Part shown: positions 2,198 through 59,333 of the stretch, piece after piece
Numbering within the stretch: position 1 is the stretch's first letter
Layout: every line of letters starts with the position of its first letter
Assembly (NCBI GenBank): GCA_951406725.2
Contig: OX597834.1
Coordinates: forward strand, 22,940,001-23,004,000
DNA length: 64,000 bases
Origin: Octopus vulgaris
Lineage: Eukaryota
Direction: 5' to 3'
Translations under genes and position numbers: made by a program
Notes under the pieces: model-generated
What the model saw: the letters and a program-made list of their open reading frames with translations, nothing else
Database searches by the model: none
What the model was told of the DNA's origin: nothing

Positions 2198-3385
2198 TTA
2201 TTTTTCTCTATGAACCAATGCATGGGCAGTGAAATGACGTTTCTGAGAAAATGATTTGCCACAGATATCACAGTGATATGACACATCTCGTGTGTGAATG
2301 TGTTTGTGTTTAGTCAAGTAACTTGTTGTAGTGAATGATTTACCACAGGTATCACAGTGATATGGTTTCTCTCCTGTATGACTGCGCTTGTGTATAGTTA
2401 AGGTAGTTGACACTGTGAATGATTTACCACAGATATCACAGCGATATGGCTTCTCACCTGTATGTATACGTTTGTGAATAGGTAATGATTCTCTACGAGG
2501 AAATGACTTACCACAGATATCACATGAATATGGCTTGTCTCCTGTATGAATATGTTGGTGAACAGTTACTTCACCTGTGGTAGTGAATGCTTTACCACAA
2601 ATTTCACAGTGATATGGCTTTTCTCCTGTGTGAATGCGTTTGTGAGTAGTTAAACGACCACTGTGAGAAAATGATTTACCACAAATATCACAAAGGTATC
2701 GTTTCTCTCCTGTATGAATACGTTTGTGACTAGTTAAGTTACCTGAATCAGATAAGGTTTTGCCACAGATGTCACAGTGGTATGGCTTTTCTCCTGTATG
2801 AAGTCGTTTGTGAGTATTTAGGTTACTCCCTACAGAGAATGATTTACCACAGATATCACAGTGATATGGTTTCACTCCTGTATGAATATATTTGTGAGTA
2901 GTTAAGTGACTACTAATAGAGAATGATTTCCCACAGATGTCACACTGAAATGGCTTCTCTCCTGTATGGAAGCGTTTGTGCACTTTTAATTTACTGTTTG
3001 AAGACATTGATTTACCACAGATATCACAATGGTATGGCTGCCCTCCTGTATGAATATATTTATGTACAGTTAAGTGAGTACTATGAGCAAATGATTTACC
3101 ACAGATATCACAGTGATAAGGCTTCTCTCCTGTATGAGTACGTATATGAGTAGTTAAGTGACAACTTGAAATAAATGATTTGCCACAAATATTACACTGG
3201 TGTGGTTTCTCCCCTGTATGAATACGTTTGTGAGCAGTTAAAGAGTTTCTGTGTGCGAATAATTTACCACAGATATCACAGTGGTTCGATGCTTTTCTTG
3301 TCCCTTTCAACATTTCATCTGCAAAATTAATGTTTTCAGACTCTATCTGAAGCGTAAATGATTTGTCACATAATGTGTTTTCCAT
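2198..3385 (-). CDS. C2H2 zinc-finger protein ZF1, 395 aa, 13 fingers, no KRAB
   Basis: Intact ORF with 13 CxxC-x12-HxxxH units and TGEKPY linkers. aattATGG start context is shared with the paralogues. Confidence 0.95.
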
Positions 3386-6789: not shown

Positions 6790-6905
6790 TCCCTGAAAGG
6801 ATGGACAGCTAAGTCGATCGCAGTGGAATTTAAACTCAGAATGTAAAGACAGACGAAATGCCACTAAGCGTTTTGCTTGGCATGCTAATGATTCTGCCAG
6901 CTCAC
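6790..6905 (-). mobile_element. tRNA-derived SINE fragment inside ZF2 exon 2
   Basis: ccctgaaaggatg...gtggaatttaaactcagaatg...attctgccagctc matches the SINE copies at 45186 and 47898. Confidence 0.8.
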
Positions 6906-6940
6906 TGTTTTAACACCAATTATAATTGAAAATCAATTAT

Positions 6941-8320
6941 ATGCAACACAAATTCAAATTAAAACAGTCTGAAAGGATTGATTTTCGTAACAATATGGAG
7001 CAAGAGACAGAAGAAACGTATAGACACAGTGATATTGTTAACATTTCAATTAAAAAAAATGAAACATCAATTGAAATTAACACTGAGTCTGAAAGGATTG
7101 ATTTTCCTAGTAAGACACTGCAAGAGAAAGGAGAAGCATCTACGCACAGTGATAACTTTAGTATGTCAATCTCTCAAGCAAGTCCCAGAACTGCTCACAC
7201 TACTATCCATACAGGAGAGAAACCATATCATTGTGATGTCTGTGGTAAATCATTCTCTAAAGTGTATGCCCTAACTAAACACATACGTGTGCACACAGGT
7301 GAGAAACCATATCGCTGTGATGTCTGTGGTAAATTGTCCTCTACAAAGAGTGGCTTAGATGTACACAAGCGCATTCACACAGGTGAGAAACCATATCAAT
7401 GTGATGTTTGTGGGAGATCGTTTTCTGGAAGAAGTAATTTAACAAAACACAAACATATTCATACAGGAAAGAAGCCATATCCCTGTGATATTTGTAGCAA
7501 ATCATTCACCGAAAGAAATGCCTTAACTGTACACAAAAGCACTCATACAGGGGAGAAGCCATTTCAGTGTGAAATTTGTGGTAAATCATTCTCTCATGTT
7601 GATCTCTTAACTATGCATAAAAGCATTCATACAGGAGAAACACCATATCATTGTGATATTTGTGGTAAATTATTCTCTCGAAGTGGTGATTTAACTACTC
7701 ACATACGTGTTCATACAGGAGAGAAACCACATCACTGCGATATCTGTGGTAAAACATTCTCTCATAGTAATGCCTTAACTATACACAAACGCATGCATAC
7801 GGGAGAGAAACCATATTCTTGTGATATTTGTGGTAAATCATTCACTTCAAAGAGTAAAGTAACAGTACACAAACGCATTCATACAGGAGAGAAACCATAT
7901 CACTGTGATATCTGTGGTAAATCATTCTCTCAAAGTAGTGACTTAACTACTCACAAATATATTCATACTGGTGACACACCATATCACTGTGATATCTGTG
8001 GTAAATCATTCTCTAGAAGAGGACACTTAACTACTCACAAATATATTCATACTGGGGGAAAACCTTATCTCTGTGATGTGTGTGGTAAAGCTTTTGCCTT
8101 ACGTAGTGATTTAACTATACATATACGTACTCACACAGGAGAAAAACCATATCACTGTGACATTTGTCCTAAATCATTCTCTCAAAGTAGTGACTTAAAT
8201 ACACACAAACGCATTCATACTGGGGAGAGGCCATATCCCTGTGATATCTGTGGTAAATCATTCTGTCGAAAAAGTGGCTTAACTAAACACGAACATATTC
8301 ATACACGAGATAAACCATAA
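6941..8320 (+). CDS. C2H2 zinc-finger protein ZF2, 13 fingers, rearranged N-terminus
   Basis: Intact finger ORF. The track start at 6926 is TTG; the first in-frame ATG is 6941 and an alternative ATG is at 6995. Confidence 0.9.
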
Positions 8321-14118: not shown

Positions 14119-14662
14119 AAGAAAGATAGTCAATAATATTTCAATCGAACAAAGTCTTAAGAATAATATATTAATTTGAAATAATAATCGAAAAAGAATA
14201 TTTACCTATCATATATTCATACACTCAGATATATATATAACGGTAAGACTTCTCTGTTGATTAACTCCATTGTCTACCTACCAGTGACCACCACCACTGA
14301 TTCGTAATAACTGATTTATACGTGGTATCTTTCATGTTTTCTTCATTCAATCGAGTTTTCTCGACCTCTTACTATAATGTTCTGTGATCTTTGTACTTAA
14401 TGTTTTGTTATTGTTTTAATACTATGTAGTATTCACTTTGTTTATAATTTGGGGGATATTTTAAATTCAATTAACATTTATTTTTAGTGTTGTTGCTGTT
14501 AACTTATCTTCCAATTTAAATAATTCGTACTGTTTTCGGTTACTGTTTACAATATTACCTGGAAACGAAATTTTAAAAAATGTAGTGCAACGGGTGCAGA
14601 AAAAAAATATCTAGGAAACAAATATGAAAACAAAGATGCGCGGAAAGCAATGAGATGAGGAG

Positions 14663-14895
14663 AGGACTTCGGAAAATTCACAACATCCGAGTTTCTCCCC
14701 CCATAACTTTTAGGAAAATGGGTTTTTTAAATGAATTTCACATAAATACCTTTCAAACGACATACATTAGTTATAAAATCTTTTCTGAGGAGGTAGGGAG
14801 AGGAAGGACTTGGGAAAATTCACAAGATCCGAAGTTTTCGCCCTTAAATTTGAGGAAAATATCTTTTAATACCTTTCAAATGACATGCATTACGG
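14663..14895. repeat. Two tandem ~140-bp units of a dispersed repeat
   Basis: ggact(tc/tg)ggaaaattcacaa...aatacctttcaaa occurs twice. Related reverse-complement copies lie at ~43897-43990 and ~46485-46740. Confidence 0.6.
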
Positions 14896-15075
14896 ATGCC
14901 TAATGTGTCGTAAACCCCTTATTTTTGTTCGGAAAAAAGGGTGGGTGGGGGCAAAAAATGCGTTTTGAAGGTGATGTGCGAAACTGCGTTAGTTTCTTTT
15001 CTTTACCCATAGTTTAAGATAACATTTTGCAGAAATACATTTTCTAGAGTGTAGATTACACTAGATTACAAATTT

Positions 15076-15494
15076 AGGATCTTTTCGGTTTGAACGGCAG
15101 TTTTTTCTAGCGGTGTCATATGAAATTGTCACCCATAATTATGACCCTAGTATCGATCTATTGCATTTCAATCTATTTTAGGGTTAGGGTTAGGAGTGGG
15201 GGGAAGGGTATATTTTTTCTTCACAAATGTAAATAAGCCAAATCTGTTTCTTAAACGAGGGACATATTCATACGGCACAAAATGTGTTCACCTCAATAGA
15301 CGTCAGTGATTGGTTGAGATTGCAGAAATTGAAGAAAAAAAAGACAACAGATATCTTACAAACAATAGAATTTTCTCAATAAAGCCAAGAGAAAAAGATG
15401 TTTTATAAACACATTCTACCAGTATACGAAGTTTAAAATTATTTAGTTACCTAGAAATTATGTTAAAAACTGCCGTTCAAACCGAAAAGATCCT
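15076..15494. mobile_element. Second, shorter copy of the inverted-repeat element, in the ZF3 intron
   Basis: TIR aggatcttttcggtttgaacggcagttttt / aaaaactgccgttcaaaccgaaaagatcct, internal ttagggttagggttagg. The right end matches 13345-13466. Confidence 0.85.
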
Positions 15495-15604
15495 CAATTC
15501 AAACATGTTTGAAAAGAATAATAAGTGAAAATGCTAAAGTTATAAAAATCAGTGGTAACGACGTCTGGACAAGAGAGAGAGAATGACAGCAAATCTTCAC
15601 AAAA

Positions 15605-15712
15605 ACCACATGGTTCTCGGTTCAGTCCCACTGCATGGCACCTTGGGTAAGTGTCTTCTATAGCCTTGGGCCAACCAAAGCCTTCTGAGCGGATTTGGTA
15701 GACGGAAACTGT
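15605..15712 (+). mobile_element. Second tRNA-derived SINE family (partial)
   Basis: B-box-like ggttcagtccc followed by ggcaccttgggtaagtgtctt. A reverse copy lies at ~38620-38740. Confidence 0.7.
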
Positions 15713-16374
15713 GCAAACTTTAAAAGCTATTAACTTCTTATTTATTAATTAATGGCAAGAATGAATTTCATTTCCATAATTAGCCTACAAAACTACATCA
15801 ATACACCAAATTGAAATCAGTGGGAACAAACCTGAATAAATTGAAAAGTGAAAGCCAAACAAAAGATCCATAATCTATAAATATGTAGACTTCACACAGG
15901 ATTGTATGATGTAATTTTAGTAGAAAATTAAAAAGTAAATGTTGATTGGATCATGTAAAAGATTGTATTTACAATATATCAATATTTTCTGCTGATGAAT
16001 GTCTACATTTAATTAACTCGTATATCTTATACTATTTCTATATTATTTCAGATTATCAAAAGTCATTGGTCTGAAAGAATTTGTTTAGATGCATCACCAA
16101 TATTTATTTATCATTTAAAGACTGAAGGAAGTTGTGATACCAAATAAATATGGTTCTGTTTGGATAAATCTGTGGTGGAATATCTGGGAAATGTATTTTC
16201 CAAAGTGAGATTAGTAGCTTAGAATATATGCAGAGATTTGCATTTTCATTGAACTTGGAGAAGTGAACAAAGAAGTGCAAACCATCTCCATATATAAACA
16301 AAGATCAAAGTTGATGGAAATATCGAAGAAACAGTAAAAAATAAAATATAGGAACTGGTGAGAGAAAAAGAATT

Positions 16375-19300
16375 ATGGAAAATGAATTCTATGAGACACC
16401 AATTAAAATTGAAAATGAATTATGCGGGACACCGATTATAATTAAAAATGAATTATATGAGACACCAGTTAAAATTAAAACAGAGTCTGAAAGGATTGGT
16501 TTTCATAATGAATTGCAGCAAGAGACAGAAGAAACCTCTACACACAGTAATATTTTTGGTATATCAATCTCTGAAACAAGTCCTAAAGCTGCTCACAGTT
16601 CTATTCATGCAGAAAACAAACCACATTGTGATATCTGTGGTAAATCATTCTCTAACAAAAATGCTCTAACTGCACACAAACGCATCCATACTGGAGAAAA
16701 GCCATATCACTGTAATATCTGTGGTAAATCATTCTCTCAAAATAGTGCCCTAACTGTACACAAACGTACTCATACAGGGGAAAGGCCATATCACTGTGAT
16801 ATCTGTGGTAAATCTTTCTCTCAAAGAAATAATTTAACTATACATAAAAGCATTCATATAGGACAGAAACCATATTGTGATATCTGTGGTAAATCTTTCT
16901 CTCAAAGAATTCATCTAACTTTACATAAAAACATCCATACAGGTGAGAAGCCATATTCTTGTGATGTCTGTGGTAAATCATTCTCTGCAACAGTTCACTT
17001 AACTTCACACAAGATTGTTCATACGAAAGAAAAACCACACCACTGTGAAATCTGTGGTAAATCATTTTCTGCACTAGCTCACTTAACTACACACAAAATT
17101 GTTCATACAGGAGAAAAACCTTATCACTGTGAAGTCTGTGGGAAATCCTTCTCTCAAAGAATTCACTTGACTTTTCACAAAAGCATACATACAGGACTAA
17201 GACCATATTCTTGTAATTTCTGTGGTAAATCATTTTCTCGAAATCAAGACTTAACTAAGCATAAACGCATTCATTCTGGAGAAAAGCCATTTCCCTGTGA
17301 AATCTGTGGCAAATCATTCTTTACAAGGAGTGATTTAAATAAGCACAAGCGTGTTCATACAGGGGAGAAGCCATATCAATGTAATATCTGTGGTAAGTCA
17401 TTTTCTGGAAGTAGTCACTTAATTACTCACAAACGTACACATACAGGAGAGAAACCATATCACTGTGATATCTGTGGTAAATCATTCTCTGAAGGAAGAA
17501 CCTTAACTACTCACAAACGTATTCATACTGGTGAGAAGCCTTATTCATGTACTATTTGCAGTAAATCCTTCTCTGATAGAAATGCATTAAATAAACACAA
17601 ACAGATTCATACAGTAGAGAAGCAATACCAATGTGATATCTGTGGTAAATCGTTTTCTGGAGATAGTAACTTAATTGAACACAAATTTATTCATGCAGGA
17701 GAAAAGCAATATTCATGTGATATTTGTAGCAAATCATTCACTGATAAAACTGCTTTTACTACACACAAGGGCACACATAGTTATGAGAAGCCATATCATT
17801 GTGATATCTGTGGTAAATTTTTTTTGGAAAGCCGGAACTTAACTACCCACATACGTATTCATACTGGAGAAAAGCCATATCACTGTGATATTTGTGGTAA
17901 ATCATTTTCTGGAAGGAGTAACTTGACTACTCACAAAAGAGTACATACAGGTGAAAAGCCATATCGCTGTGATATTTGTGGAAATTCATTCTCTCGTAGA
18001 GATGTTTTAACTACACATGAACGAATTCATACAGGAGAGAAGCCATATCATTGTGATATCTGTGGTAAATCATTCTCTCATCGAAATGTCTTATCTTCAC
18101 ACAAACGTATTCATGCAGGACAGAAGTCATATAGCTGTGACATCTGTGGTAAATCATTCTCTCATGCAGGAACCTTAACTAGTCACAAACATATTCATTC
18201 TGAAGAGAAGCATTATCCATGTGATAAATGTAGTAAATCATTCACTGATAGGAATGCCTTAACTATACACAAATTCATTCATAGGAACGAGAAGCCATAT
18301 CATTGTGATATCTGTGGTAAATTATTTTTAGAAAACCGTAACTTAACTACCCATATATGTACTCATACAAGGGAGAAGCCATATCACTGTGATATTTGTG
18401 GTAAATCATTTTCTGGAAGGAGTAACTTAACTACTCACAAGCGTATACATACAGGTGAGAAGCCATATCGCTGTGATGTTTGCGGTGACATGTTTGCTCG
18501 AAGAGATGTCTTAACTACACATGAACGAATTCATACTGGAGAGAAGCCATATCATTGTGATATCTGTGGTAAATCATTCTCTCATAGAAATGTCTTAAAT
18601 AATCACAAGCATATTCATGCAACAGAGATACCATATAGTTGTAATATCAGTGATAAATCATCCTCTCAAACAGAAACCTTAACTACTCAGAACCATACTC
18701 ATACAGAACAAGAACAATATCAATGTGATATTTGTGGTAAATCATTCCATAGAAGTAGTTACTTAATTTCTCATAAACGCAGTCATACTGGGGAGAAACC
18801 ATTTTCATGTGCTATTTGTGGTAAATCATTCTCTCATAGAAATGTCTTAAGTAGACACAAGCGGATTCATACAGGAGAGAAGCCATATCACTGTGATATC
18901 TGCAGTAAATCATTTTCTAGAAGTAGTAGTTTAACAAAACACAGCTATATTCATACAGGAGATAAACCATATCCTTGTGACATCTGTGGTAAATCCTTCT
19001 CTGGAGGTAATGACTTAAGTACTCATATACGTATTCATACTGGAGAGAAACCATTTCAGTGTGATATTTGTAGTAAATCATTCACTCGCAAACATATCTT
19101 AATTATGCATAAAAATATTCATACAGGGAAGAAACCATATGATTGTAATATCTGTGGTAAACCATTCTCTCGAACAGGTGATTTAACTAAACATAAACGT
19201 ATTCATACAGGAGAGAAACCACATCACTGCGATATCTGTGGTAAACCATTCTCTCATAGTAATGCCCTAACGATACACAAACGCATGCATACAGGAGAGA

Positions 19301-19812
19301 GACCATATTCTTGTGATATTTGTAGTAAATCGTTCACTTCAAAGAGTAAATTAACTGTACACAAACGCATTCATACAGGAGAGAAACCATATCATTGTGA
19401 TATCTGTGGGAAATCATTCTCTCAAAGCAGTGACTTAACTACTCACAAATTTATTCATACAGGTGACACACCATATCACTGTGATGTCTGTGGTAAATCA
19501 TTTTCTAGAAGGGGTCACTTAACTACTCACAAGTATATTCATACTGGAGGGAAACCATATCTCTGTGATATCTGTGGTAAATCATTTGCGCTAAGTAGTG
19601 AGTTAGCTAAACATATGCGTACTCACACAGGAGAAAAGCCATATCCCTGTGATATTTGCGGTAAATCATTTTCTCGAAGTAGTTACTTGATAACACATAA
19701 ACGCATTCATACTGGAGAGAAACCATATGCCTGTGATATCTGTGGTAAATCATTCTCTCAGGGAAGTAGCTTAACAACTCATAAGCAAATTCATACAGGA
19801 GAGAAACAATAA
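16375..19812 (+). CDS. C2H2 zinc-finger protein ZF3, 1145 aa, 38 finger units (1 degenerate)
   Basis: Long intact single-exon ORF; three N-terminal 11-aa repeats. Confidence 0.95.
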
Positions 19813-26107: not shown

Positions 26108-28876
26108 ATGGAAAATGAATTCCATGAGACACCAATTGTAGTTAAAAATGAATTATGTGAGACACCGATTATAATAAAAAATGAAGTATGTGAGACACCA
26201 ATTAAAATTAAAACAGAGTCCGAAAGAATTGATTTTCCAGATGATCCTCTGCAAAAGACAAGAGAAACATCTTGCCATAATGATATCTTTGGCATATCAA
26301 TCTCTCAAACAAATCCTATAACTGCTCACAGTACTATCCATACAGGAGACAAGCCATATCATTGTCATATCTGTGGTAAGTTATTCTCTAACAAAAGTGC
26401 CCTAACTGTTCACAAACGCACACATACAGGAGAGAAGCCATATCATTGTGATATCTGTGGCAAGTCATTCTCTAACAAAACTCCCTTGACCGTACATAAA
26501 CGCACTCATACTGGAGAGAAGCCATATCACTGTGAAGTCTGTGGTAAATCGTTTTCCACAAAAGGACACTTAACTTCACATAAAATCATTCATACAGGAG
26601 AAAAACCATATCATTGTGATGTTTGTAGTAAATCTTTCTGTACAACAAGTCACTTAACTGCACATAAACTCATTCACACAGGAGAGAAGCCATATGACTG
26701 TGATATCTGTGGCAAATCATTCTCTGCAACAGCTGATATAACAAGACACAAAATTATTCACACAGGAGAGAAGCCATATCACTGTGAAGTCTGTGGGAAA
26801 TCCTTCTCTCAAAAAATTCACTTGACATTTCATGAGAGCATTCACACAGGGGTAAGACCATATTCTTGTAATTTCTGTGGTAAATCATTCTCTCGAAATC
26901 AAGATTTAACTAAACACAAACGCATTCATACTGGAGAAAAACCATTTCACTGCGATATCTGTGGTAAATCCTACTCTACAAGTAGTGATTTGAATAAACA
27001 CAAGCGTGTTCATACTGGGGAGAAGCCATATCACTGTGATATATGTGGTAAATCATTCTCTGGAAGTAGCAATTTAAATACTCACAAACGTATACATACA
27101 GGTGAGAAACCTCATCGCTGTGATATCTGTGGTAAATCATTCTCTGGAACAGGATCTTTAAATGTACATACACGTATTCATACGGGGGAAAGGCCCTATC
27201 GCTGTGATATCTGTGGTAAATCATTTTCTGGAACAGGAACTCTAACTATTCACAAACGTATTCATACAGGTGAGAAGCCATATTCATGTACTATTTGCAA
27301 TAAATCATTCACTGATAGAAATGCCATAACTCAACACACAAGGATTCATACTGGAGAAAAACCATTTCATTGTGAAAGCTGTGGTAAATTTTTCACTACT
27401 AGTAGTAGCTTAAATAAACACAAACGCATTCATACAGGAGATAATTTATATCACTGTTATATCTGTGGTAAATCATTCTCACATAGAAATGCCTTGACTA
27501 TACACAAACGGAGTCATAAAGCTGAGAAGCCATATCATTGTGACATCTGTGGTAAATTATTTTTACAAAGTCGTAACTTAACTATCCACATACGTACGCA
27601 TACAGGAGAAAAGCCATATCACTGTGATATTTGTGGTAAATCATTCACTGCAAGAAGTAATTTAACTACTCACAAACGAATTCATACAGGCAAGAAGCCA
27701 CATTGCTGTGATGTGTGTGGTAAGTCATTCTCCCGTAGAGATGTCTTAACTACACACCAACGAATTCATACAGGAGAGAAGCCATATCATTGTGATATCT
27801 GTAGTAAATCATTCTCTCGGAAAAATGTCTTAACTAATCACAAACGAATTCATACAGTGGGCAGGCAATATCACTGCAATATCTGTGGTGAGTCATTCTC
27901 TGGAAATAATGACTTTACTACTCACAAACTTATTCATACAGCCAAGAAGCCACATTCATGCACTATTTGTGATAAATCATTCACTAATAGAAGTCTCTTA
28001 ACTAATCACAAACGAAGTCATAATGGAGAGAAGCCATATTGTGATATCTGTGGTAAATCATTTTCTACAAGTGGTAGCTTACATATACACAAGCGCACTC
28101 ATACAGGAGAGAAGCCATATCACTGTGATGTGTGTGGTAAATCTTTCTCTTTTAGTGGTAATTTAACAAAACACAAATTTATTCATACAGGAGACAAGCC
28201 ATATCCATGTGATGTGTGTGATAAATCATTCTGTCATAGAGCTGCCTTAGTTATACATAAATGCGTTCATACAGGTGAGAAGCCCTATCACTGTGATATT
28301 TGTGGTAAATCATTCTCCCGAACTGGTGATTTAACTAAGCACAAACGCATTCATACTGGGGAGAAACCACATCATTGTGATATCTGTGGTAAATCCTTCT
28401 CTCATAGTAATGCTTTAATTATACACAGACGCACACATACTGGAGAGAAACCATATGCTTGTGATATTTGTGGTAAATCATTCATTTCAAATTGTAAATT
28501 AACTATACATGTACGCATTCATACAGGAGAGAAACCATATCACTGTGATATCTGTGGTAGATCATTTTGTAAAAGTAGTGACTTAACTACTCACAAATTT
28601 ATTCACACAGGAGACACACCATATCACTGTGATATCTGTGGTAAATCATTTGCTAGAAGAGGTCACTTAACTACTCACAAATATGTTCATACTGGAGGGA
28701 AACCATATCTCTGTGACAGCTGTGGCAAATCATTTGCTCTAGCAAGTCTATTAAGTAAACATATGCGTACCCATACAGGCGAAAAGCCATATCACTGTGA
28801 TATCTGTAGTAAATCATTTTCTCGAAGTAGTTACTTGGTAACACACAAATGCATTCCTACTGGAGAGAAATCATAA
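26108..28876 (+). CDS. C2H2 zinc-finger protein ZF4, 922 aa, 30 finger units
   Basis: Intact ORF; the last finger lacks its second His (HKCIP); three N-terminal 11-aa repeats. Confidence 0.95.
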   Translation: MENEFHETPIVVKNELCETPIIIKNEVCETPIKIKTESERIDFPDDPLQKTRETSCHNDIFGISISQTNPITAHSTIHTGDKPYHCHICGKLFSNKSALTVHKRTHTGEKPYHCDICGKSFSNKTPLTVHKRTHTGEKPYHCEVCGKSFSTKGHLTSHKIIHTGEKPYHCDVCSKSFCTTSHLTAHKLIHTGEKPYDCDICGKSFSATADITRHKIIHTGEKPYHCEVCGKSFSQKIHLTFHESIHTGVRPYSCNFCGKSFSRNQDLTKHKRIHTGEKPFHCDICGKSYSTSSDLNKHKRVHTGEKPYHCDICGKSFSGSSNLNTHKRIHTGEKPHRCDICGKSFSGTGSLNVHTRIHTGERPYRCDICGKSFSGTGTLTIHKRIHTGEKPYSCTICNKSFTDRNAITQHTRIHTGEKPFHCESCGKFFTTSSSLNKHKRIHTGDNLYHCYICGKSFSHRNALTIHKRSHKAEKPYHCDICGKLFLQSRNLTIHIRTHTGEKPYHCDICGKSFTARSNLTTHKRIHTGKKPHCCDVCGKSFSRRDVLTTHQRIHTGEKPYHCDICSKSFSRKNVLTNHKRIHTVGRQYHCNICGESFSGNNDFTTHKLIHTAKKPHSCTICDKSFTNRSLLTNHKRSHNGEKPYCDICGKSFSTSGSLHIHKRTHTGEKPYHCDVCGKSFSFSGNLTKHKFIHTGDKPYPCDVCDKSFCHRAALVIHKCVHTGEKPYHCDICGKSFSRTGDLTKHKRIHTGEKPHHCDICGKSFSHSNALIIHRRTHTGEKPYACDICGKSFISNCKLTIHVRIHTGEKPYHCDICGRSFCKSSDLTTHKFIHTGDTPYHCDICGKSFARRGHLTTHKYVHTGGKPYLCDSCGKSFALASLLSKHMRTHTGEKPYHCDICSKSFSRSSYLVTHKCIPTGEKS

Positions 28877-35930: not shown

Positions 35931-38042
35931 ATGGAAAATGAATTATGTGAGAAATCAATTATAATTAAAACAGAGTCTGAAAGTATAGCATTTCCGAATG
36001 ACATGCAAGAAGGAATGGGTAAAACACCAAACCACTGTGATATCTGTGGTAAATCGTTCACGCAAAGAAAAGCTTTAACTGTACACAAACGTATTCATAC
36101 GGGGGAGAAACCATATCACTGTGATATCTGTGGTAAATCATTCATTTCAAGTAGTTACTTAACTAAACACAAACGTATCCATACGGGTGAAAAGTCTTAT
36201 CACTGTGATATCTGTGGTAAATCATTCTCTGCAAAAACTCATTTAACTAGGCACAAAATTACTCACACAGGAGAAAAGCCATATTACTGTGAAGTCTGTG
36301 GGAAATCCTTCTCTCAAAGAATTCATTTGACTTTTCACAAAAGCATACATACAGGGATAAAACCATATTGTTGTGATTTCTGTAGTAAATCATTCTCTCG
36401 GAAATATGATTTATCTAAACACAAACGAATTCATACTGGAGAAAAACCATTTCATTGTGACATCTGTGGTAAATCCTTCTCTGCAAGTAGTGACTTAAAT
36501 AAACACAAGCGTGTACATACAGGTGAAAAGCCATATCACTGTAACATCTGTGGTAAATCATTTTCTGGAAGTAGTGACTTAACTACCCACATACGCATTC
36601 ATACAGGTGAGAAGCCATACCGATGTGACATCTGTGGTAAATCATTCACTCATAAAAATTCCTTAACAATACACAAACATATACATACAGGTGATAATTC
36701 ATATCAGTGTGATATCTGTGGTAAATCATTCTCTAGAACAGGAACTTTAACTATTCACAAACGTATTCACACGGGTGAGAAGCCATATCACTGTACAATT
36801 TGTCGTAAATCATTCACTTATAGACATGTCTTAATCAAGCATAAACATATTCATACAGGAGAGAAGCCATATGCATGTGATATTTGTGCAAAATCATTCA
36901 GTGACAGAAATGTCTTAGCTATACACAAATGCAGTCATACAGGTGAGAAGCCACATCGCTGTGATGTCTGTGGGAAATCATTTCTCCATAGTCGTAACTT
37001 AACTACCCATATACGTACTCATACAGGAGAGAAGCCGTATTGCTGTGATATCTGTAATAAATCATTTTCTTGTAGAAGCACCTTAACCATACACAAACGC
37101 ATTCATACCAGTGCGAAGACATATCCATGTGAAATCTGTGGTAAATCATTCTCTCGAAGCAGTTACTTAACTAAACATAAGCATATTCATTCAGGAGAAA
37201 AGCTAATTTCACCTGATGTTTGTGACAAATCTTTCTCTCGTACAAATGCTTTAACTATACAAAAACAGATTCTTACAGGAGATAAGCCATATCATTGTGA
37301 TATCTGTAGTAAATCATTTTCTCGAAATAGTCACTTGACCACTCACAAATATATTCATACAGGAGAAAAACCATATCACTGTGATATTTGTGGTAAATCT
37401 TTCTCTCATTCAAGTACTGTAACTGTACACAAACGAATTCATACAGGAGAAAAGCCATATCATTGTGAAATCTGTGGTAAATCATTTTGTAAAAGTAGTG
37501 ACTTAACTACTCATAGATATATTCATACAGGTGAGAAGCCATATCACTGTGACATCTGTGGGAAATCATTCAACAGAAGATGCCATTTAACTACTCACAA
37601 ACGAATTCATACAGGAGAGAAACCTTATCTCTGTGATATCTGTGGTAAATCATTCTCACAAAGTAGTGAGTTAACTACTCACATTCGGACTCATACAGGA
37701 GACAAGCCATATCACTGCGAGATATGTGGTAAATCATTCTCTCAGAGTAATGACTTAACTATACACAAATATGTTCATACAGGAGAAAAGCCATATCATT
37801 GTGATATTTGTGGTAAATCATTCTCTTATAGAAATTCCTTAACTACCCACGTACGAATTCATACAGGAGAGAAGCCATATCACTGTGGTATCTGTGGTAA
37901 ATCATTCTCTCGATCTAGTGACTTGACTTGTCACAAGTATATTCATGCTGACGAAAAGCCATATGAATGTTATACCTGTGGTAAATCATTTTCTCGGAAA
38001 CATCTCTTAGCTACACATGTATGTATTCATGCAGAAGTATAA
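35931..38042 (+). CDS. C2H2 zinc-finger protein ZF5, 703 aa, 24 finger units (1 degenerate)
   Basis: Intact ORF with a single N-terminal repeat unit followed by IKTESE. Confidence 0.95.
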
Positions 38043-49778: not shown

Positions 49779-52175
49779 ATGGAATATGAATTACATGAGA
49801 CACCAATTGTGATTAAAAGTGAATTATGTGAGACACCAATTCATATAAAAACAGAATCTGAAGACATTGATTTTCCTAATGATATGCTGCAAGTCAAGGG
49901 AGAGATATCTACACATAGTGATACCATAGGTATATCACTGTCTGAAACAAGTCCCATAACTGCTCAGAGTAGTACCCATACAGGAGACAAGCCACATCAT
50001 TGTGATATCTGTGGCAAAGCAATCTCTAACAAAAATGCCCTGACTATACACAAACGGATACATACTGGCGAAAAGCCATATCATTGTGATGTCTGTGGCA
50101 AATCATTCTCTGCAAGAGGTGACTTAACTAGACATAGAATCATTCACACAGGAGAGAAGCCATATCACTGTGAAGTCTGTGGGAAATCCTTCTCTCAAAG
50201 AATTCATTTGACTTTTCACCAAAGCATACATACAGGGATAAAACCATATTGTTGTGATTACTGTGGTAAATCTTTCTCTCGGAAAGATGATTTATCTAAA
50301 CACAAACGGATTCATACTGGAGAAAAACCATTTCATTGTGACATCTGTGGTAAATCCTCTTCTACAAGTAGTGACTTAAATATGCACAAACGCATTCATA
50401 CAGGTGAGAAGCCATATCACTGTGATATCTGTGGTAAGTCATTCTCTGGAAGTAGTGATTTAACTAGACACAAGCATATTCATACAAAAGAAAAACAACA
50501 TCTATGTGATATCTGTGGTAAATCATTCTCTGGAAGTACTGAGTTAGCTGAACATAAACATATTCATACAGGAGAGAAACCATATCACTGTGATCTCTGT
50601 GATAAATCATTCACTCAGAAAGGTAACTTAATTAGACATAAATGCATTCCTACAGGTGAAAAATCTCATCATTGTGACATCTGTGGTAAATCATTTTCTC
50701 GAAGTAGTAATTTAACTATTCATGTACGTATTCATACAGGCGAGAAACCATATCAGTGTGATATCTGTGGCAAATCATTCTCTAATAGGAATTCCTTAAC
50801 TATCCACGGACGCATTCATACAGGTGAGAAGCCATATCACTGTGATACCTGTGATAAATCATTCTCTGCAAAAAGACACTTGAATAAACACAAAATCATT
50901 CATACAGATGAGAAGAGATATCACTGTGATATTTGTGATAAGTCATTTTCTGCAAGTAGCGAGCTTTCTAGACACAAACATATTCATAAAGTAGAGAAGT
51001 CGTTTCCTTGTGAAGTCTGTGGTAAATCGTTTTCTAGAAATAGTGAGTTAACTAGGCACAAACGTATTCATACAGGAGAGAAACTATATAAGTGTGAGAG
51101 CTGTGGTAAATCATTTAGTCAGAGAGGTCCCTTAATTCGACATAAATGCATTCATACAAGTAAGAGGTCATATGATTGTGATATCTGTGGAAAATCATTT
51201 TCTAAAAGTAGTATCTTAACTACTCATATACGCTCTCATACGGGAGAGAAGCCATATCACTGTGATATATGTGGTAAATCATTCTCTCGAAGTGGTCACT
51301 TGAATATACACAAATATATTCATACAGGAGGACAGCCATATCACTGTGACATCTGTGGTAAATCAATGTCTTCGATTAGTAAATTAACAGTACACAAACG
51401 CTTTCATACTGGGGAGAAGCCATTTCAGTGTGATGTCTGTGGTAAATCATTCTCTATTAGTAGTCACTTAACTGCTCACAAATATATTCATACAGGAGTA
51501 AAGCCATATCCCTGTAACATCTGTGGTAAATCATTTGCTGTTAGAAGTAAGTTAATTACTCACAAGCGTATTCATACAGGAGAAAAGCCATACCACTGTG
51601 ATATCTGTGGCAAAACATTGTCTGATCCAGGTAACTTAACGAGTCACAAACGTATTCATACAGGTGAGAAACCATATCTTTGTGACATTTGTGGTAAGCC
51701 ATTCTCTCACAGTGGTGATTTAACTGCTCACAAACGCATTCACACAGGTGAGAAGCCATATGACTGTGATATCTGTGGTAAATCATTTTCACGTAGAGAT
51801 GCATTAACAGTGCACATACATATTCATACAGGTGAGAAGCCGTATCACTGTGATATCTGTGGTAAATCATTCTCTCAAAGTAGTGATTTAACTAGACACA
51901 AATACATTCATACTGGAGAGAAACCATACAGTTGTGATATCTGTGGTAAATCATTCACAGTATCAAATAACTTAACTATACACAAACGCAGTCATACAGG
52001 GGAGAAGCCATATCACTGTGATTACTGTGGTAAATCATTCACTTTAACAAGGAGCTTAACTAAACATAAACGTATTCACACAGGAGAGAAGCCATTTGAC
52101 TGCGATGTGTGCGGTAAGTCATTTCCTCAGAAATGTCACTTATCTGCACATCTGTTTATTCACACAGAAAAATAA
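49779..52175 (+). CDS. C2H2 zinc-finger protein ZF6, 798 aa, 26 finger units
   Basis: Intact ORF. The track start at 49764 is GTG; the conserved aattATGG start is at 49779. Confidence 0.95.
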
Positions 52176-57947: not shown

Positions 57948-59333
57948 ATGGAACGTGAATTACATGAGACACAAGTTGTGATTAAAAGGGAGTTATGTGA
58001 GAAACCGATTCATATAAAAACAGAGTCTGAGGACTTTGATTATCCTAAAAATATGCTGCAAGACAAAGGAGGAACATCTACACACAGTGATATGTTTGAT
58101 GTGTCAATCGATGAAAAAAGTCCCATAACTGCTCAGAGTAGTATCCATAAAGGAGACAAGGCACATCATTGTGATATCTGTGGCAAAGCACTCTCTAACA
58201 AAAATGCACTGACTATACACAAACGCATACATACTGGGGAAAAGCCATTTAACTGTGATGTTTGTGATAAATCTTTTTCTAGAAATAGTGTGTTGACTCG
58301 GCACAAACGTATTCATACAAGAGAGAAACCATATCAGTGTGATACGTGTGGTAAATCATTTAGTCAGAAAGGTCCCTTAATTCGACATAAGTGCACTCAT
58401 ACAGGTAAGAAACCATATGAGTGTGATATCTGTGGAAAATCGTTTTCTAAAAGTTGCATCTTAACTAATCATGTACGCTCTCATACAGGAGAGAAGCCAT
58501 ATCACTGTGATATCTGTGGTAAATCATTCTCTCGAAGTGGTCACTTGAATATACACAAATATATTCATACAGGAGGACAGCCATATCACTGTGACATCTG
58601 TGGTAAATCAATGTCTTCGATTAGTAAATTAACAGTACACAAACGCTTTCATACTGGGGAGAAGCCATTTCAGTGTGATGTCTGTGGTAAATCATTCTCT
58701 ATTAGTAGTCACTTAACTGCTCACAAATATATTCATACAGGAGTAAAGCCATATCCCTGTAACATCTGTGGTAAATCATTTGCTGTTAGAAGTAAGTTAA
58801 TTACTCACAAGCGTATTCATACAGGAGAAAAGCCATACCACTGTGATATCTGTGGCAAAACATTGTCTGATCCAGGTAACTTAACTAGTCACAAACGTAT
58901 TCATACAGGTGAGAAACCATATCTTTGTGACATTTGTGGTAGACCATTCTCTCACAGTGGTGATTTAACTGCTCACAAACGCATTCACACAGGTGAGAAG
59001 CCATATGACTGTGATATCTGTGGTAAATCATTTTCACGTAGAGATGCATTAACAGTGCACATTCATACTCATACAGGTGAGAAGCCGTATCACTGTGATA
59101 TCTGTGGTAAATCATTCTCTCAGCGTCGTGAGTTAACTACTCACATTCGGACTCATACAGGAGAGAAGCCATATCACTGTGAGATATGTGGTAAATCATT
59201 CTCTCAAAGTAGTGATTTAACTAGACACAAATACATTCATACAGGAAAGAAGCCATATAGTTGTAATATCTGTGGTAAAACATTCACAGTATCAAATAAG
59301 TTAACTATACACAAACGCAGTCATACAGCATAG
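57948..59333 (+). CDS. C2H2 zinc-finger protein ZF7, 461 aa, 14 fingers; truncated duplicate of ZF6
   Basis: ORF from the conserved aattATGG (the track start at 57933 is GTG). Ends at a GAG>TAG change in a linker. Confidence 0.9.

Follow-up and report, generated by a model that had tools for sequence, protein, structure and literature searches.

The window analysed here, a stretch of 64,000 nucleotides (C21:22940001-23004000) from the 2.8 Gb genome of Octopus vulgaris, contains seven C2H2 zinc-finger open reading frames (ORFs), each with 13-37 fingers and tandem TGEKP linkers (7/7), hereafter ZF1 to ZF7 (Table 1). ZF3 to ZF7 open with 33-bp units in the copy numbers that the initial annotation had given: three in ZF3 and ZF4, two in ZF6 and ZF7, and one in ZF5. 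The unit corresponds to codons 3-13 of an N-terminal segment of ~35 residues, here called the leader, and Tandem Repeats Finder recovers it as 33 bp x 3.2 at 16378-16480 in ZF3 (80% matches) and as 33 bp x 3.1 at 26112-26213 in ZF4. The leader cores of ZF3-ZF7 hold 11 [IVL]-K-x-E sites, those of ZF1 and ZF2 none. Every psi-K-x-E site previously listed for ZF3-ZF7 is present, but the accompanying statement that unit junctions create them does not hold for the first junction of ZF3, where the null sequence I-E-N-E is found; IKIE lies two residues upstream of it. Internal junctions thus keep a site in 5/6 cases, and ZF3 has the shifted site instead of the sixth.

Table 1. Features of the window and related loci. 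Positions count from the first nucleotide of the window unless prefixed C21.
Feature	Position	Strand	Basis or remark
ZF1 leader, one unit	3281..3385	-	without lysine, L-Q at psi-K
Dispersed repeat directly upstream of ZF2 remnant	6790..6910	.	60-98 blastn hits per position in 1.14 Mb searched
ZF2 decayed multi-unit leader and second in-frame INTE copy	6913..7087	+	first part out of frame, start lost
ZF3 non-coding upstream exon	14119..14242	+	contig alignment; 5' end is the limit of the contig
ZF3 intron, GT..AG	14243-16051	+	contig alignment
ZF3 coding exon, 5' untranslated part	16052..16374	+	ahead of ATG
ZF3 N-terminus	16375..16491	+	start codon and three 33-bp units at 16381-16479
ZF3 psi-K-x-E sites	16402-16413, 16441-16452, 16474-16485	+	sequence reading
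ZF3 coding sequence	16375..19812	+	leader and 37 C2H2 fingers, single open frame
ZF4 N-terminus	26108..26224	+	three units, VKNE, IKNE, IKTE; ORF end 28876, 29 fingers
ZF5 leader, one unit	35931..36035	+	IKTE at 35964-35975; ORF end 38042, 23 fingers
ZF6 N-terminus	49779..49856	+	two units, IKSE, IKTE; ORF end 52175, 25 fingers
ZF7 N-terminus	57948..58025	+	two units, IKRE, IKTE; ORF end 59333, 14 fingers
Second-register loci	C21:23007911-23037813, 23124570, 40711784; L060, L090; P0008		sequence reading

ZF1 and ZF2 had been taken for natural lysine-null variants. This description fits ZF1, whose lysine loss is common to a neighbour gene upstream of the window. ZF2, in contrast, is a broken sister of ZF3, with 81% identity to 16429-16568; the dispersed repeat occupies its former start, its remnant units are out of frame, and its in-frame copy is INTE. 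In ZF4, ZF6 and ZF7 the linker that separates the leader from the first true finger is a decayed one, scoring 33-55 bits in register as opposed to 101 for true units; in ZF3 only part of the linker scores as a finger, and out of register. That the leader is itself a decayed finger was ruled out, as it shows no consistent register.

The gene structure of ZF3 is documented by two contigs from two studies (X1 and X5, from runs only guessed to be RNA), which pass from 14241 directly to 16051, skipping a GT..AG intron, and extend to 16653 with 0 differences, covering the repeat. Two differences are seen in a run labelled organism B, which covers 16142-16632. Within 16375-16491 the contigs do not differ, a result that is hardly informative on RNA editing. 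No ATG occurs in the upstream exon, and leader and fingers share one exon and one open frame. Between 16052 and 16374 the ZF3 mRNA also carries five upstream ORFs of 5-12 codons, none overlapping the main ORF, which could possibly damp translation.

To place these genes in their family, a census was taken of 944 kb in four clusters, in which ORFs with at least three fingers were chosen regardless of the motif. Among the 85 ORFs found, 60 have a leader with an in-frame Met, 14 have a leader without one, and 11 have no leader (74/85 with leader). In the 14/74, the in-frame Met was lost via small frameshifts or stops and the finger ORF is still open (for instance, C21:22937025, 40720612 and 40847148); deletions are present in several census leaders. 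A further 33 leaders on other stretches were selected by likeness to the leader or to its first six codons, for a total of 93. Several other arrangements were observed along the way. L010 (C3:57.69 Mb) and L011 (C21:16.86 Mb) have the same leader protein, equal ORF length and different upstream sequence, and are a recent dispersed copy. L019 and L030 (C24:3.0 Mb) are leader copies without zinc fingers after them, probably truncated pseudogenes. At C28:5182746 and 5189666, two finger ORFs of a leader-type cluster begin with a longer N-terminal region of another kind and have no leader, and C21:17.19-17.39 Mb holds one finger gene.

As far as the searches reach, the leader is confined to Octopus. 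When 1.84 billion representatives were searched with a profile of 21 leaders, 12 hits were returned at E<=0.001, of which the 10 named ones are all Octopus zinc-finger proteins (O. sinensis, O. vulgaris and O. bimaculoides) and two are unnamed; no squid, fish or insect protein is among the named hits at this threshold. A protein search with the leader alignment returned 3 O. sinensis proteins among 7997 scored candidates, a word-indexed protein search with ZF5 residues 1-40 and ZF4 residues 1-78 gave no matches, and the six intact window proteins have no exact-sequence match in the protein collection searched. In keeping with the initial annotation, which saw no KRAB, SCAN, ZAD or BTB in the window proteins, no Pfam family rises above cut-off in six N-termini, nor in any of 22/22 leaders (ZF1 included). 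A KRAB search of the genome gave 0 matches, but its control was also undetected, so that this result is no evidence of absence. The best PDB match to the leader has an E-value of 0.38. AlphaFold, given only 7 aligned sequences, gives a pLDDT of 50.6 and one 5-residue helix outside the repeat, the repeat itself showing no structure. In the ESM Atlas, which gives leads only, the segment with the decayed finger included finds ten chordate zinc-finger clusters at 0.90, and the repeat alone reaches 0.86 at best, with a KRAB cluster at 0.79. No paper on this leader turned up in the literature searched, which largely omits subscription journals, and the leader appears to be unannotated.

Across the whole family the leader is poorly conserved and the motif sparse. 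Over the 60 census genes the leader has a dN/dS of 0.78 as opposed to 0.07 for finger core residues. The core psi-K-x-E occurs in 29/93 leaders (25/60 from the census and 4/33 search-found) and in 1/12 database hits. The modal residue frequencies in the 60 leaders are 0.30 for Ile at psi (Cys 0.35), 0.63 for K and 0.57 for E, lower than those of Glu7 (0.85), Phe21 (0.78) and Glu4 (0.73). The best-kept positions family-wide are Glu2, Glu4, Glu7 and Phe21, Glu2 partly via data selection. In the 38 genes outside the subfamily described below, leader dN/dS is nearly neutral (0.88-0.96), and psi, K and E show no significant constraint (p 0.05-0.32). A shuffle test finds the motif anywhere in 29/60 leaders against a mean of 7, which we do not count as support because the genes are kin. 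The proposal that the leader substitutes for KRAB throughout the family is therefore not supported: K and E are kept no better than the residues around them and fall below Glu7 and Phe21, an outcome that the initial annotation had itself named as refuting, and most of the wider family lacks the motif, so it is no general KRAB stand-in. In a second register, (I/V)-K-(C/V)-E, lying two residues upstream, the motif occurs where the usual Lys is Glu; this form is present in 7/38 other genes and in one O. bimaculoides protein (P0008).

A different picture emerges in a subfamily of 22 census genes to which the window genes belong. In a tree of the 5' UTR only, 19/22 form a clade (SH-aLRT 96.2), and on a UTR-plus-finger tree all 22 group together with four others (81.1). 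Their leaders are acidic, with a mean net charge of -4.7 and 25% Asp/Glu, as opposed to a charge of -1.0 in the other 38. The motif is kept in 18/22 and lost in 4/22. By codon, dN/dS is 0.11 at psi, 0.11 at K and 0.17 at E, 0.39 at x, and 1.31 and 0.97 at the flanks. In a home-made codon model with fixed nucleotide parameters and a fast tree, applied to a family in which gene conversion is possible, the motif evolves at 0.14 and the remainder of the leader at 0.71 (LR 16.6, p 4.6e-5), a signal carried by about four replacements across three codons, and the motif ranks first of 30 triplets of the same shape. When the six window genes, from which the hypothesis came, are dropped, the remaining 16 genes give 0.22 against 0.73 (p 0.004), with a close runner-up triplet at 0.27. 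Left out of the model were the 14 leaders without Met, including three broken local-cluster leaders without lysine, and the 11 leaderless ORFs; L008 and L010, search-found subfamily genes that both carry the motif, also lie outside the modelled set.

This constraint persists on a tree from the 5' UTR alone. Because x and the flanks are freer and synonymous changes occur at all three motif codons, it acts on the protein. UTR triplets read as pseudo-codons served as a neutral control: the median over 115 of them is 1.07, with 2/115 at or below 0.2, and nine Lys-type triplets range from 0.52 to 1.78. Simulation from an I-K-x-E ancestor yields a mean retention of 4.3/22 under neutrality or 6.5/22 at a dN/dS of 0.7, and none of 3000 runs (0/3000) reached the 18 observed; for the 16 genes, 13 are observed against 4.8 expected (P 0.005). 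The earlier claim that psi, K and E stand out above their flanks thus survives within this one subfamily and not family-wide. Other positions are also held there: Glu7 is equally constrained (0.13-0.21), and the remaining Lys/Glu columns are on the low side (0.40-0.59). Met25 of the leader, too, is fairly constrained here (dN/dS 0.26) and could serve as a second start that bypasses the motif.

The repeat units invite a mechanical explanation. The M-E-N-E start codons match the I-K-T-E codons at 7/12 bases in the 33-bp register, one of the better registers, and at 9/12 in the best register, and a duplication joins I-K to N-E, so that a new site arises mechanically. More generally, 398 of 1386 possible in-frame duplications would add a site (29%), and 31/69 would do so at 33 bp. 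Unit distances suggest one duplication common to ZF3, ZF4, ZF6 and ZF7 and a second common to ZF3 and ZF4. The four genes are monophyletic only in a leader-including tree without support values, and leader-free trees do not group them. Constraint at the extra junction sites (0.33 as opposed to 1.34, p 0.019, tenth of 165 triples) is a weak and circular signal. Multi-unit leaders number 4/93, all in the window, beside the ZF2 remnant; because copy number varies only in these four, the description of the module as tunable is unsupported. The extra sites are probably tolerated or mildly favoured and no designed dial.

Taken together, these data lead us to favour, with modest confidence and on the strength of sequence comparison, a reading in which a likely single SUMO acceptor is under selection in one subfamily, would damp transcription at finger-bound DNA, and was multiplied by about two slippage events. 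The segment is predicted to be unfolded, so that Ubc9 could reach the lysine. As known pathways would have it, Ubc9 would attach SUMO to the motif lysine, and the attached SUMO would recruit corepressors bearing SUMO-interacting motifs (SIMs), damping transcription at the bound DNA. Further sites would arise automatically by slippage between the M-E-N-E and I-K-T-E codons, which resemble each other, and about two such events may have taken place in the ancestors of ZF2, ZF3, ZF4, ZF6 and ZF7. Octopus is expected to have SUMO; a SUMO gene search of the genome returned 14 matches, 11 of them in one tandem array. The two matches that were checked are ubiquitin, and SUMO was not located. At C3:117301610-117304102, 11 polyubiquitin-like units spaced 228 bp apart form an ordinary array within a single frame of 902 codons.

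Several precedents bear on such a mechanism. [IVL]KxE is the commonest SUMO site according to the accessible part of PMC3395311. In human screens, as given in the available portion of 10.1101/2022.08.26.505496, a SUMO motif matters for repression in 149/166 repression domains bearing one, and a 10-residue IKEE tile is reported sufficient; the motif is also found in 12.3% of non-repressing tiles. In Drosophila, a single N-terminal SUMO site of Bonus is required for repression via SetDB1 and NuRD, as stated in the part of PMC10672805 consulted. The PIII/PIVV runs of the units had been likened to a SIM. The patterns set out in the same part of PMC3395311 are a V/I-x-V/I-V/I core, or P-psi-x-psi then three D/E/S, and the runs fit neither, being followed by K-N-E and having a hydrophobic middle position in 1/22 terminal units.

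Three other readings were weighed against this one. The leader could be weakly constrained and dispensable, its motif being accidental in AT-rich sequence rich in Lys, Glu and Ile or kept for a purpose unrelated to SUMO (as a short binding site or for another modification), and the arrays being products of neutral slippage. Its family-wide and near-neutral dN/dS, the 14 leaders without Met, the deletions, and ZF2, which lost its leader although contig coverage persists immediately downstream of its ORF, are all consistent with dispensability, and the share of duplications that add a site by themselves is consistent with neutral arrays. Retention in the subfamily, however, is far above simulation, and the slowly evolving codons are spaced as in psi-K-x-E, x and the flanks being free, so that we regard this account as rather unlikely. 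Alternatively, SUMO on the site could serve to control the solubility, turnover or nuclear localisation of these long finger arrays, for instance by way of SUMO-targeted ubiquitin ligases, and not to recruit corepressors. The same constraint and retention data would agree with this, relocalisation is named as an alternative mechanism in the accessible text of 10.1101/2022.08.26.505496, and long arrays (37, 29 and 25 fingers against a median of 12) are present in three of the four multi-unit genes. The fourth, however, has 14 fingers, arrays of 27 and 35 occur without extra units, and the four genes are kin; we consider this explanation improbable. A family-wide KRAB substitute with strength tuned by copy number and built-in SIMs is highly improbable, for although most cluster genes have the leader, the second register adds a few motifs and internal junctions mostly keep the site, the core motif is sparse and without significant constraint outside the subfamily, the multi-unit leaders are all neighbours, and the SIM patterns are lacking.

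Returning to the putative SUMO acceptor of the subfamily, its closest parallels are SUMO-motif repression segments such as SP3 IKEE, the MGA tile and synergy-control motifs, which likewise place psi-K-x-E in a predicted unfolded acidic segment beside a DNA-binding domain. For the flanks of synergy-control motifs, a spacing of 0-4 applies. Several internal octopus sites are likewise Pro/Gly-flanked, and Pro/Gly-flanked SUMO sites restrict transcriptional synergy as described in the accessible part of PMC3554661. The octopus motif differs in that it sits on the leader of a duplicated subfamily, has been multiplied by 11-codon slippage and is known here from sequence alone. The octopus leader may act as such repression segments do in ordinary transcription factors. 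Selection on a SUMO consensus in one subfamily is new for these genes, and the element itself is of known kind.

The FiNZ-ZNF genes of cyprinid fish (PMC10547256, as far as its accessible text goes) also carry a short, acidic, lineage-restricted N-terminus on an expanded and clustered C2H2 family without KRAB. According to that text, however, FiNZ is a 28-residue domain with high conservation and an exon to itself, whereas the octopus leader is weakly constrained and shares the finger exon. Knockdown evidence for transposon repression by FiNZ is given in the same source, and a possible TRIM33 interaction in the available part of PMC11603059; the word 'SUMO' has 0 occurrences in the main texts of both. 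Neither the FiNZ motif IKEESE given in the initial annotation nor the 28-residue FiNZ profile was found in the searched text of PMC10547256 and 7 of its supplement files. Like KRAB zinc-finger proteins, the octopus proteins combine an N-terminal segment with a long C2H2 array and occur in tandem clusters. They nevertheless lack a KRAB match, a predicted fold and a separate coding exon, and their leader is dispensable in many paralogues. The window genes are not KRAB-ZNF genes: they have no such domain and no separate exon. In all likelihood, they are members of the Octopus-specific C2H2 expansions of PMC12513265; in the parts of that paper examined, 'N-term' and 'motif' have 0 occurrences, and the leader and its motif are undescribed.

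A bolder and quite doubtful extension would make the leader a cofactor-free silencing handle: a bare SUMO acceptor that arose by point change in a drifting leader, was fixed by selection and then slipped into two- and three-site forms, so that repression would be graded and need neither KRAB nor TRIM28. The parts of the cephalopod literature examined name no effector for the large C2H2 expansions. The motif marks one subfamily and not the whole expansion. For this subfamily, the Octopus-restricted leader holds a three-codon selection signal that points to specific lysines, and its natural zero-, one-, two- and three-site forms are a ready series for SUMO valency.
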